From IMG/VR virus record IMGVR_UViG_3300007517_000005, positions 21,512 through 85,511 of that record: a stretch of DNA of 64,000 bases; one strand, written 5' to 3'. The stretch comes from a virus. The notes below the pieces were generated by a model, which worked only from the letters and a program-made list of their open reading frames with translations, did not search any database and was not told the origin of the DNA. The position numbers and the translations under genes were made by a program. How positions within the stretch are numbered: position 1 is the stretch's first letter; each line of letters begins with the position of its first letter. Shown in pieces: positions 41,247 through 53,135 of the stretch.

Positions 41247-41279
41247 TAGTAGGCCCTACCCATGGGCCTATTATTGTAC
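41247..41279 (+). promoter_or_regulatory. Conserved intergenic hairpin motif, copy 1
   Basis: TAGTAGGCCC-TACCCAT-GGGCCTATTATTGTAC. Confidence 0.75.
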
Positions 41280-41296
41280 TCTATCAATTTAGTCCC

Positions 41297-41911
41297 ATGT
41301 TAGTATTAGCTCTGTCTGTTGTCTCCGTGGTATGTGTGGTATCTATTGTATCAGTCGTGTATTTGTACCAACAAGTACAGTCGATGAAAGCTCAATTGGT
41401 GGCAGCACACACCAATACCTCGTTCGATTGTCTCACTCGCACTGGTGTGCGGGTCACGTGGAAGGGCGGTCGGCAGGGATTGATCTTTATGGATCTAGAT
41501 CACATGCACGGCTTGAATAGCCTCCTAGGTTATGCACAAGTAGATGCACTGATCCACCGCGCCCTTGCTACCTTGCGTAGCACCGATGCAGTATCATCGA
41601 TCGGGCAATGGATGAGTGGTGATGAGTTCATCATCACCTGCTTTGCAGGTGAGGAAGTGGGTCTCGCCACGCGGCTGCGTGGTGTCATGAGTGATATCAC
41701 TCAAGAGTTACGGATGGATTCATCCATCCAAGCTAAGCATGCAGAGTTACTGGCTACGGATGCTCGGTATGGCATGTCAGCACCTACGTTTGCAGCCACC
41801 TATGGCTGTGTCACCACAGTGACAGGTGCATCACTAGAAACAGAGGTGAACCGCGCCTCTTTTAAGGTACAGGCTGCAAAGGCCGCCAATGATCGTGGAA
41901 CTGTAAACTAG
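41297..41911 (+). CDS. Membrane-anchored GGDEF-domain protein (diguanylate cyclase-like)
   Basis: N-terminal TM helix; DCLT, FMDLDHMHGLNSLLG..D, SGDEF. Confidence 0.8.
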   Translation: MLVLALSVVSVVCVVSIVSVVYLYQQVQSMKAQLVAAHTNTSFDCLTRTGVRVTWKGGRQGLIFMDLDHMHGLNSLLGYAQVDALIHRALATLRSTDAVSSIGQWMSGDEFIITCFAGEEVGLATRLRGVMSDITQELRMDSSIQAKHAELLATDARYGMSAPTFAATYGCVTTVTGASLETEVNRASFKVQAAKAANDRGTVN

Positions 41912-41930
41912 GCTCTGTATATTTATCTAG

Positions 41931-52300: not shown

Positions 52301-53044
52301 AACCCTATGGATATCGTGAGCCTAGGGCAACACGTCAATGTAATGACTCAGGCATCCGCTTGGTTATGGCGTGGCGTGTACGAAGGCTTAGGCCTATCAG
52401 GTTATAGCCCTGACGCATTCACCTTCTTCGAGGCCTTCACTTACGCGCTCCGCAATAAGGGTCTGGTAGGGGATGCCTCAATTGTCGATGATAAGGGTAA
52501 TGTCACAAGCATAGCTGTTGCTAAGCCCAATGTCATTGGTGGTGTAACTATAGGTATGACCTTGGGTGCATTCTTGAGTAAGCACTACAAGATGACCTTA
52601 GAGATTGCCAATGAAGTAATGGCAGCTTGTTTGCTCTATAACGGGTACCGTGCTATCGAGCGTGGTCAACACGTGCCATCAGAGGCCGTCTATGATAAGG
52701 TTCCTCCAACAATGTTGGACACCTACGAGAACCTTTACTACGACAACATGTCCGGATGGCCGGACACCAAAGAAACTGAGTACATAGACCACGCTGTACT
52801 GGCTGGTGTATTCCGACGTGCGGGACAAGGTACCACTGGTGTATCCTTCGATGATGAAATGGATGGTGAGTCATCTTCGCAGATGATCTACACCTACGCC
52901 GCTGAGTTATGGGCTATTGCCATAGCAAGTGGCCGCTCCCCATTCTTGAATGTCATGTTAAATGACATCGTCTATCAAAGCGTAAGTCTGTACTGTAAGC
53001 TAGTGCAGATTGCTTCCATCGAATCCACAAACGAGGCTTACTAA
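43310..53044 (+). CDS. Giant single-chain two-barrel RNA polymerase with HExxH zincin motif (about 3240 aa)
   Basis: GDLIAVGRTP (GRTP at 51512) 37 aa before GDSDGD (DSDGD at 51626-51640); GMKGRGLGIKFII (49625) and IHVTPEG; VHELMH (46346-46360); start could be 43283, 43301, 43310 or 44486. Confidence 0.78.
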   Translation: MATSNNGSIVSTTTSTTPSATPSATTMNTTSTSSIYKAAAAARKAAKAAAKAAPGIAIRAAKAAKAAAIEAEREATKVAAIEAARAAAAIATATRFEVYCYLTVASIKGNAATAAVMGSTTLVVAAAFAVAVLKVRRPRKATRAARKAAARKVMGIASRKANRPSNRPSRATVSTSSAFVRKVHRNSMAVKRAARMGALAVYQYVAIATAVAAPVLANTSTSEVEAILERPKRTAKVMPLALVRPNVRAVRHYIAVAVAVAVAVEVEVEPTTAFSRTEKAEADKAKASLKGSRTKAQDDAIEAKAKRKAEAKAKKAAKSTSTPKTKTDKKDKGKGITSERKGAHNLVVAGPTADNYGWVEISNEELLLSLESSDSHTAVGQAAETIHKDNNDMTTNFSPEVITKNLECLLAGVITPAEAFLLAQHQTVAATTVVDGSVVCMKAPATPATLAPVTNVELAYTSEGRFYPAKALTKEYFAIPADFYAMESIRIAYKSMKLDTHTYNFYDEGGTVSIKTNKHNNSIFINNSHPRIYLVDGVEYHFNNLLEAVFNESISATNAGVLEQWADFNIEVTGVAEDLGCDLEEATTLVVAAGFVKPAQPIHYIVPIAERVETKEKGKFEYKLNEKAIIESAALWEEQGYEVLVIKSELVVSNLSVENFRYNGCIPCEPITNRELERLVLSEVVQKWSADNIHLSVKPISNLSEWLDKVMNSNTGSVKSISFSFNNITNIQQRISDVKGFSHEFTFATPKDHYDALGLEEGSVPAFTINLWTSAPAKSAVVSQKVMADVLTNVPKLERRTGTQGSSLSVRGLFAQNAGRNNVKPDAPRQSLAHKVLATNVVASTTSASVTNEVITPTVAEAKEATASAVVIDTVSGGAAFEVDSVGGALDTAPVINAGDVLKPAASSKQSATPVVATTLKDVDSQLLALTGSSSDDEEEEIDLDDMDLCQAVELKEVKFTPSYDGDIKTIINDLDLAITTIPAGGDYGNYLNDVISISEELSGDEATQVLVHELMHVVISNVSEDAANSFITDWLDTVGQSSICPADMSMEEQFCYSFMEYEHNVDDLSAFLDGVFNRDDSWVDAYNALAVAAGPEVAAKSTAHLSIIAEGTAPVVPALSPMKAALLAVNDQEIIIVTNNKGTVPVAYTDAFPELLDVMPRTLEYGSTTTVTAACGVTLHAICAVSETGTLHTDSLKSGLMHIATLGCDKKYVCEPDLGFGDDIIIKPYILGAVTTLLGQAKVRTLQLPVMGRLVKAWANAGAVVTYPKADLSLWAADLCRGTALTATAVGTGEVLMAQRTPSGRSMVATMAIIKEDGTVDKAALAVGLTELEEGIANGLVPLPITVYSNQQVAFNTIKYQHSNAIRGVEVVDYEQNVFPEAVKIGVLTKGPKGEVGADLYKWYSFLRDGISGGAGLYNVQELSVELFTEAFKAVGLPVNLAGFALCPMPLRFLKNGMVFVRNGKTAKGVVENATKFEDMIDKTLLGVLLDSGVKVYTAQYAWDAAAKKSMIRGVVENIYDYEQGYGLEPLPEGIAGQDMLKLKEDNEFMYPIIALGTIGHSLDQYMQKHVHDTLQYLVDNFGVGVAIRYTQALLPELMQKEGVMTTDGTLQYRLSVFSLQNAAEYYMEFTPVEGLNDTDPNWLSPRDCTIISRRQYDVNAITNLSGFPDTMYDGTVVALALAISAACGRKVTQDAFEGYLAGTTNLWARSENYGKKGITEKFANYSLTSTLKVIIDNSGKTISSTPNHVIDASGVRLSKETGAGRWPYHMPCNAPLDLSVMQCLMKKGQLVICDKYAMERIVVGDGARAMMASILTVEQASELAGYNQNYGLSMALDPNNGNCVMSVCWPTDKASKALNRPWQFNGASQADGWHEKLSWCPLHTDLGNNKRSAIEGFKRTFIATNDFMSHGSGTAQQHPDASLWSLFVPGSMSATLTWNQVPAVQEKVDANGNHLKGLRCNTAIMGPVSGEGPAGKDADGKEVPVSKWFCDTFAKMFVENAIKKAMFEADGTTPRVYAPGEEMVVILDKLMVKGNEVVGYYPNGQTPGLPSSRTVLFTNDLGKQDCVITGYRLLPQQRGEKLQIRLDYATVMDTNNIDTSMYSGMKGRGLGIKFIINHDGTIEYIGKVLYNGEMVDANELYKRGAIHVTPEGLKGNYAFIQGFASAHGNAVMSGPYLTIDSTMPDGTPNPHYLLGSADMVSDMSDSNAYFYKWMKSITQTNRMRKTVNRDVWEEIVAYNREALGPDGKLPGLVIIPQPGPYAIEWDGEVDGQPHVTTPNVVTVEYDVQIAVFDYWVQVEVATPGACTGDQGATSEQAVHIEVMREATATHLWKSSAKQRKGVNSAVRSAEVHANVEAGIQEDGLFQFNPLDKTHQELMMHLLNQVSSTGVRTERKPEHFFILLATLFGGAAMNPTALWLNMLAGKVSNLDYVEGAKGMEVVTNSGGYNYLTEVTGLLELVMNTLGVFPLEELGLTLRDLQELVSIAIQDHLTMDVAGTRTVVESITGVTMSTSATALGIQMYIMDLIGLGYTVVKQVEGKPEPDLAIIPLHVGQGLVINTTSENTEAGESQEAVTYVDPTVFLQLGAFEVSRIAADPKTHAPARTVTGAATGVVNDIHHAFVEWTTTQFWQRNGSGTRPHSMNCRLRASMAGWIGVNSKKSTQLNAKGVLSRVARINKGGVAGKIDTGLGPELGHHIVTDKNGTPVGKLPVAIIHPDCLLAKGLKHGDLIAVGRTPTVSLIMAVVRFSRVFGRMGYIRMSFSVWAAGNNGDSDGDPCNRIRMGGATDKGWSGLTYRGAMKINKSALGMGGYSIVCGVPLHQHDCAEFVSFTNSWTKKVFNDALIPDSIKAWLAVKGLKVKGLETLVNLMLPASLLDSARKVSQHYRANVGVAYGWCSAYSAHMKEKHSYLKAVLNAVLKSEAALACGHELPSIDTLMEVLMSGEIYEAIRLTAVDTVVDGTVMTTITQDAEAVVRIRIKYPAIMALYDLKLIAEVNPMDIVSLGQHVNVMTQASAWLWRGVYEGLGLSGYSPDAFTFFEAFTYALRNKGLVGDASIVDDKGNVTSIAVAKPNVIGGVTIGMTLGAFLSKHYKMTLEIANEVMAACLLYNGYRAIERGQHVPSEAVYDKVPPTMLDTYENLYYDNMSGWPDTKETEYIDHAVLAGVFRRAGQGTTGVSFDDEMDGESSSQMIYTYAAELWAIAIASGRSPFLNVMLNDIVYQSVSLYCKLVQIASIESTNEAY

Positions 53045-53101
53045 TCGAGAGTATAGCCTTCAGACCATCACTATGTAATCAATAGGGGGCCCTCCCCCTA
53101 G

Positions 53102-53135
53102 ATAATGGGCCCCTAATACGGGCCTATTATTGTAC
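53102..53135 (+). promoter_or_regulatory. Conserved intergenic hairpin motif, copy 4 (variant)
   Basis: ATAATGGGCCC-CTAATAC-GGGCCTATTATTGTAC. Confidence 0.7.

Follow-up and report, generated by a model that had tools for sequence, protein, structure and literature searches.

The stretch of viral DNA studied here, 64 kb long and called the window below (positions 21,512 to 85,511 of the IMG/VR record IMGVR_UViG_3300007517_000005), is part of an 85.5-kb record estimated to be about half complete. It contains a short hairpin element, repeated between the genes of a cluster that ends in a giant gene. The cluster, which lies on the + strand, is made up of a gene for a membrane-anchored GGDEF-like protein carrying SGDEF (41297..41911), a gene for a 183-aa protein of unassigned function (41984..42535), a protein-kinase-like gene (42598..43251) and the gene of a giant 3244-aa protein (43310..53044), a homolog of gp064 of the Microcystis phage Ma-LMM01. 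The element was followed by means of the 16-mer GGGCCTATTATTGTAC, which has four exact occurrences in the window, at 41264, 41948, 43273 and 53120, all of them on the + strand. Four hairpin copies had been claimed in the original prediction, and these occurrences bear the claim out. When up to three mismatches were allowed, the window gave five motif matches, a number reached by none of 100 shuffled sequences. The genome-wide motif search proposed at that time was run on the 85.5-kb record; it returned the known window copies and no extra GGGCCTATTATTGTAC copy in the rest of the record.

At every window copy the 16-mer is the 3' half of a stem-loop. Copy 1 (41246..41279, + strand), a stem-loop followed by the tail TATTATTGTAC, is located 5 nt past the stop of the open reading frame (ORF) 40981-41241 and 17 nt before the ATG at 41297. 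Copy 2 (41928..41963, + strand), a 13-pair stem-loop with its tail, follows the GGDEF-like stop by 19 nt, leaving 20 nt up to the ATG at 41984, and copy 3 (43253..43288, + strand) is 4 nt past the kinase stop and 21 nt before the giant-gene ATG at 43310. Copy 4 (53101..53135, + strand), with the 5' arm TAATGGGCCC, lies 57 nt past the giant-gene stop and is followed by a non-coding repeat array. The spacing from the preceding stop codon is thus 4-57 nt, and between the tail end and the next ATG, where a gene follows, 17-21 nt. RNAfold predicted 11-13 pairs, a 7-nt loop and energies of -17.2 to -19.4 kcal/mol for copies 1-4, with z values of -3.5 to -4.4 relative to dinucleotide shuffles. The 7-nt loop is as first described; the stem of 10-11 bp given with it corresponds to the core only. 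On the complementary strand the hairpin is weaker by 3-7 kcal/mol (+ strand fold, -16 to -21 kcal/mol).

A fifth, decayed copy (42545..42577, + strand) is composed of TAGTAGG, a GGGGAT/ATCCCC hairpin and the tail TTCTCTTGAC. It is placed like the other copies, 9 nt separating it from the stop at 42535 and 20 nt from the ATG of the kinase gene at 42598. This is the looser hairpin noticed earlier in front of the kinase: it could be located, but its fold energy is no better than that of shuffled sequences (z -0.1). Directly 5' of copy 4 there is another GC hairpin with a GGGGGCCCTCCCCC core (53083..53100, + strand). The two together form a double hairpin past the giant gene, as is also seen in Ma-LMM01 past gp064. 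A second copy of the GGGGGCCCTCCCCC hairpin occurs at 54491-54508, directly past ORF 53450-54481.

Judged by protein similarity, the window phage, an uncultured cyanophage, is related to the Microcoleus phage My-WqHQDG and distantly to Ma-LMM01, and it is not N4-like. The 3244-aa protein shares 43% identity with a protein of My-WqHQDG, and in its C-terminal core it matches Ma-LMM01 gp064. A second giant protein of 3897 aa, encoded on the minus strand, has 63% identity to its My-WqHQDG counterpart and about 26% to Ma-LMM01 gp080 and its MaMV relatives. My-WqHQDG contains five copies of the element in the same kinds of position as the window: four exact copies stand before four successive genes, the last of which is the giant gene, and the fifth (tail TTGTCA) stands past the giant gene, with non-coding repeats behind it. 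The DNA match to My-WqHQDG spanning copy 3 and the start of the giant gene is 78%. A 1.3-kb metagenome contig encodes a GGDEF-like protein 87% identical to that of the window; identical copies of the element flank this gene on both sides (two copies), and the adjacent spacers are diverged. In two further GGDEF homologs (P0005 and P0009) the gene calls run through the element, which is therefore present there too.

Eleven copies from three genomes (the window, My-WqHQDG and the metagenome contig) were aligned. Fourteen consecutive columns comprising the 3' arm and the tail are invariant, and the 16-mer is unchanged in 10 of the 11 copies, in contrast to the diverged flanks. The 5' arm has four variable columns, each an exchange between A and G opposite U, and 97.7% of the cells are paired; the unpaired cells are confined to the first My-WqHQDG copy. 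Both the invariance of the 3' arm and the preservation of pairing through G-U, which the original prediction had stated for the window copies, are seen in this larger set, the pairing with the exception of that one copy. Because copy 4 and the orthologous My-WqHQDG copy have an identical variant 5' arm, the independent changes in this arm are few; with no variation at all in the 3' arm, nothing can be learned from covariation statistics on the 11 copies. No additional copy was detected by a covariance model over 313 kb (the window phage, My-WqHQDG and part of Ma-LMM01), and the element has no match in Rfam. An exact 16-mer scan of IMG/VR yielded a single match, inside a coding region, which was judged to be due to chance. 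The covariance model gave 24.9 bits to a site in My-WqHQDG (L040 19477-19511, about 139477-139511 of the record) with a TAGTAGTAATA head, an exact TATTATTGTAC tail and no GC core. This hairpin-less TATTATTGTAC (record position 139497) is antisense to the local genes and is likely a chance match or a relic.

The genes found between the copies differ among relatives. The window has the GGDEF-like gene, the 183-aa gene and the kinase-like gene; in the My-WqHQDG counterpart the giant gene is preceded by a 335-aa gene that is unrelated, the kinase and one additional gene of 356 aa. The two clusters have just two genes in common, the kinase at 47% identity and the giant gene at 43%. These differences argue that the copies bound exchangeable cassettes, units that would be replaced, gained or lost whole. 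The GGDEF-like protein has no counterpart in My-WqHQDG and none in the phage collection; a GGDEF profile search gave no IMG/VR relatives and one close metagenome contig, the other genome-contig matches being distant or spurious. The protein, which has SGDEF in place of GGDEF, is conserved among eight metagenome proteins. The 183-aa protein has no homolog in My-WqHQDG, IMG/VR single-protein scans with this protein and with the kinase gave no matches, and no homologs of the small ORFs of the window were detected in the Ma-LMM01 region or in the IMG/VR loci L044 and L045.

The fact that cassette content changes exactly at the copies would also suit a site acting in DNA, either a palindromic operator for a dimeric regulator or an attC-like folded single-strand recombination site, and so would the inverted repeat with its 10-bp arms and strict sequence conservation. 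The arms, however, are unequal in conservation, G-T pairs occur on one strand only, every copy is oriented like the genes, and no integrase or recombinase is linked to the cluster. A DNA-level site is thus very improbable.

Elements of like form were found in more distant relatives. In Ma-LMM01, MaMV-DC, L044 and L045 the element consists of a GC hairpin, then a T-rich tail and GT; it stands some 20 nt ahead of an ATG, next to a homolog of the giant gene. Ma-LMM01 has six minus-strand GC hairpins with TTTTTCYTTYTRGTG, all within 43.7-51.3 kb: one before gp067, two between gp067 and gp066, one between gp066 and gp065, and one each before and after gp064, the giant homolog. The gene-preceding copies are 20-26 nt from the ATG. 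MaMV-DC has at least eight copies, in which the tail is constant and the stems are many and different. In L044 the element is present at 13 small-gene boundaries upstream of a 1446-aa polymerase-like gene; it has the form GTAAGGGYC-loop-GRCCC followed by TTATTTTGTA, with 13 tails reading TTATT(T/A)TG, one stem position that alternates between C-G, U-A and U-G, and loops that are mostly UUCG. L045 carries copies of the GGCCCTTTTATT type, likewise flanking its polymerase-like gene. TTGTA is common to the window element and the very distant L044 lineage. Since the stems covary and UUCG tetraloops occur, comparison of these relatives shows a structure selected in RNA. The best explanation of the window copies would be that they are one lineage's version of a boundary element common to Ma-LMM01-related cyanophages.

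Three side observations were made in these relatives. The annotated start of Ma-LMM01 gp067 runs through the hairpin element (L029 15254-15320); the in-frame ATG 22 codons downstream is more likely the true start, because it is preceded by AAGAGGA and its spacing fits that of all other copies. In the divergent region between gp067 and gp068 (L029 15400-15600), three direct repeats of about 60 bp, each with TTGCTG...TATTAT promoter-like boxes, lie upstream of the first hairpin element. At L045 13953-13975, GTGGGTTCAAATCCCAC resembles a tRNA T-arm, and for this reason that phage contig probably carries a tRNA gene.

The original prediction had offered two functions for the hairpins, promoters for a virion polymerase or sites of RNA processing and stabilisation. 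A promoter of the N4 type would be a DNA hairpin that supercoiling extrudes on the template strand and that an injected, T7-like virion polymerase reads, and the window does have conserved inverted repeats before genes and a giant virion-module protein in the same phage. In the N4 promoters P1-P3, however, the hairpin is on the template strand, has its centre at -11 and consists of a 5-7 bp stem and a 3-nt loop, and it serves a T7-like enzyme (PMC4496689; the structure of N4 mini-vRNAP, the virion RNA polymerase, is deposited as 2PO4). The present element has a stem of 11-14 bp, a loop of 7-8 nt and a preference for the coding strand, the hairpin being weaker on the template strand; moreover, the phage is not N4-like and no N4/T7-type polymerase signal was found in its two giant proteins or in the fragmentary record. 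This idea is largely refuted, and we give it hardly any credence.

Of the processing idea, the RNA-level part is better supported, in the form of a terminator and stabiliser (see below). If RNase E or J (or RNase III) cut the polycistronic transcript beside the hairpin, the upstream pieces would keep a protective 3' hairpin and the downstream pieces would receive a short leader. The location of the structure on the + strand is in accord with such cutting, as are the AU-rich single-stranded stretch behind the hairpin and the presence of n+1 copies for n genes, a set that includes a copy ahead of the first gene, in Ma-LMM01, and another behind the last gene. Against it stands the hairpin plus U-tract of the relatives, which has the classic form of a terminator. 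Classic T7 RNase III sites consist of about 20 bp of double-stranded RNA (about two helical turns), usually with an internal loop. With 11-14 pairs and no internal loop the present stems are too short, and the T7-type RNase III site was for this reason rejected. Processing as the primary function therefore seems improbable to us, if less so than a site acting in DNA.

The two giant proteins gave no Pfam, PDB-sequence or RNA polymerase PHROG match, and a profile-versus-PDB sequence search with the family of the 3244-aa protein gave no real match. In a library-wide search this family was found to cover residues ~2600-2900 of the protein, with conserved KLRGxGxK, GRTP and NEGDSDGD motifs; in the window protein the polymerase-like core motif reads GRTP...NNGDSDGD, at residue 2773. 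An AlphaFold model of residues 2451-3000 had a mean predicted local distance difference test score (pLDDT) of 68.5, with a core of about 90, and its top Foldseek matches were Rpb1, plant NRPD1, the beta' subunit of phage AR9, the polymerase of African swine fever virus (ASFV) and Thermus beta'. The modelled region resembles the double-psi barrel of an RNA polymerase large subunit, and on the basis of these matches the 3244-aa protein is credibly a relative of the single-chain two-barrel RNA polymerases. Apart from the C-terminal polymerase-like core, the protein has an alanine-rich, low-complexity N-terminus and a zincin HExxH at residue 1013, with a weak phrog_87 metalloprotease match. The 3897-aa protein had been named as the virion polymerase. 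This could not be confirmed: the model of its DYDGD region was all-helical and of low confidence (pLDDT 46.5), and the label thus derives from a motif only. Neither PF00940 nor Sigma70_r2 was found in the record, which is a fragment; for PF00940 the control genomes were equally silent.

A GC-rich stem-loop past a stop codon, as in intrinsic (Rho-independent) terminators, is present at the window copies, with energies of -17 to -19 kcal/mol. Further points of likeness are the U-rich tract, the position just past the stop codon and an upstream A/G-rich arm able to pair with the tail, and the relatives have UUCG loops and clean U-tracts. In the window only six + strand GC hairpins with T-rich tails were found in 64 kb, and four of the six are this element. 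The other two, at 56297-56326 (TCTATTGTGT) and 58655-58692 (TTTCTTATTG), are also on the + strand and at gene ends, with ATTG-containing tails; they may be diverged relatives of the element. Tail scores were calculated in the style of TransTermHP. Past the GC core the window copies scored -2.4, which is borderline, within the top 1% of the window background. The L044 copies scored -2.8 to -3.6, and the relatives overall -2.5 to -3.6.

The repeat, its fold and strand bias, its conservation and syntenic placement, the differences in cassette content and, in the relatives, features of RNA type are direct observations, and from them we infer termination, stabilisation and recombination as the functions of the element. 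It would be a leaky intrinsic terminator or attenuator and a stabiliser of 3' ends, and at the same time a recombination linker for cassettes, a reading to which we give an even chance. The element would act as an RNA stem-loop, with a GC core extended by A-U and G-U pairs and a U-rich tail ending in GUA, its place being directly past one stop codon, with 15-22 nt left to the start codon of the next gene. In the + strand transcript the hairpin would cause partial termination or attenuation and protect the 3' end, so that the genes around the polymerase-like gene would become partly insulated units, the downstream ones being reached by read-through. As all the boundaries, and related phages too, share one 34-nt sequence, this could also serve as a homology patch where whole genes are gained, lost or replaced.

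Several observations weigh against this reading. Past the extended stem the tail scores of the window copies fall to between -1.1 and -1.5, which by E. coli-derived rules makes them weak terminators; the U-tract itself has interruptions (UAUUAUUGU), and in the free fold its bases are paired. Spacing is tighter on the ATG side (15-22 nt to the next ATG) than on the stop side (4-57 nt from the previous stop). One Ma-LMM01 copy precedes the first cluster gene in a divergent intergenic region, where there is no gene before it whose transcript could be ended. Finally, a generic terminator accounts neither for a 3' arm and tail that stay unchanged among phages with 43-63% protein identity nor for the conserved GTA/TAGTG past the U-tract; conserved bases past the U-tract are seen in every lineage.

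The invariant tail and the fixed spacing would be explained if the element were a start signal, or one that combines stop and restart, used by a two-barrel RNA polymerase of the phage itself, an alternative that we consider possible but rather unlikely. The hairpin would end the upstream transcript and the AT-rich GGGCCTATTATTGTAC would be a short private promoter with a start near GTA, yielding one-gene transcription units. It is equally doubtful, in our estimation, that the invariant 3' arm and tail (GGGCCTATTATTGTAC in the window, TTTTTCYTTYTAGTG in Ma-LMM01 and TTATTTTGTA in L044) constitute such a private stop-restart signal. In favour of a stop-restart role are the 16-mer unchanged amid diverged flanks, the fixed 15-22 nt to the ATG with no room for another promoter, the Ma-LMM01 copy before the first cluster gene in the divergent region, the TTGTA shared with the very distant L044, and the modelled double-psi barrel of the 3244-aa protein. 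On the other side, RNA, and not duplex DNA, is indicated by the UUCG loops, the G-U pairs and the covariation in the stems, there are just 4-5 copies per genome, in one cluster, non-coding repeats and not a gene lie behind copy 4, and the 3897-aa candidate for the virion enzyme has no confident fold. As to host-type promoters, a sigma-70 promoter scan was at chance level overall and listed nothing at the copies; the gap between hairpin and ATG has no room for a sigma-70 promoter, and the best -35 candidates match two of six positions.

Expression data for Ma-LMM01 bear on both the leaky terminator and the stop-restart signal. In the part of Table S3 of PMC5780444 that was compared, the element-flanked genes gp064-067 belong to class B5; their log2 FPKM (fragments per kilobase per million) values are 1.6-2.8 at 1 h and reach only 6.6-8.4 at 3-6 h, and most genes in this part of the table are at about 10-13. 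The early genes gp054-063 are at 5.4-7.9 at 1 h in the same part. These early genes are without the element and lie downstream of a 42-bp array past gp064, and their intergenic hairpins are of another kind, with no U-tracts. By these values the genes behind the analogous element are neither the earliest nor strongly expressed, which speaks against a stop-restart signal; the pattern would fit a damping element and not a strong promoter of the earliest class. The window cluster had been called an early operon, a label that could not be established. The Ma-LMM01 genes flanked by the equivalent element are, in the compared part of the table, weakly expressed middle genes.

Among known systems, the promoter-early stem-loops (PeSLs) of T4-type phages are similar in being short repeated intergenic cassettes with a GC-rich stem-loop at each boundary of a variable gene block, and in that the gene differences between related phages, which involve whole genes, coincide exactly with the copies, as found here. 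The stem-loop of PeSLs has been read as a terminator or attenuator (Arbiol 2010, PMC2839356; Comeau 2014, PMC4122927). In contrast to PeSLs, only 15-22 nt lie behind the present element and no sigma-70 promoter was detected there, the phage group is Ma-LMM01-like, and the copies are arranged around a polymerase-like gene. For PeSLs, both mini-circles and terminator activity have been demonstrated (PMC2839356, PMC4122927), whereas the window element is known from sequence. From ordinary intrinsic terminators the element differs in that the U-tract of the window copies is broken by A's and that 16 nt, including the bases past the U-tract, are invariant across diverged phages. The Thermus phage P23-45 likewise encodes a two-barrel RNA polymerase (in the window predicted, from the 3244-aa model). 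In P23-45 single-chain two-barrel polymerases use private conserved promoter motifs, and a conserved 26-nt motif is present at the terminators of the virion enzyme (PMC10770324). The P23-45 signals, unlike the window element, were mapped by cappable-seq and ChIP-seq, and of the window's two giant proteins just one gave a polymerase-like fold.

Past copy 4 there is a tandem repeat array of 3.3 units of 69 nt (53187..53415, + strand). It ends in GGGATATAAT and is immediately followed by a consensus TATAAT at 53418-53423. In position it is the analog of the 42-bp array of Ma-LMM01 (L029 7230-7560), which lies upstream of early genes and ends in GGGATATAAC, the -10 region of the predicted gp063 early promoter in the list of Morimoto et al. 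The window phage and Ma-LMM01 thus have the same order of giant polymerase-like gene, double hairpin, repeat array and next gene block, this last block consisting in Ma-LMM01 of early genes.

Ma-LMM01-type cyanophages are reported to rely only on host sigma-70 transcription (PMC5780444). If the stop-restart signal were real, a terminator and a promoter would be packed together into about 35 nt, in a phage group for which use of the host polymerase only has been reported. Even if the element is a leaky terminator and cassette linker, a phage group outside the T4 type would use one short linker to insulate and to exchange accessory genes. An analogous element is present in the cultured phages Ma-LMM01 and MaMV-DC, and together with the polymerase-like giant gene the element provides concrete, testable sites for how Ma-LMM01-type phages organise their transcription.

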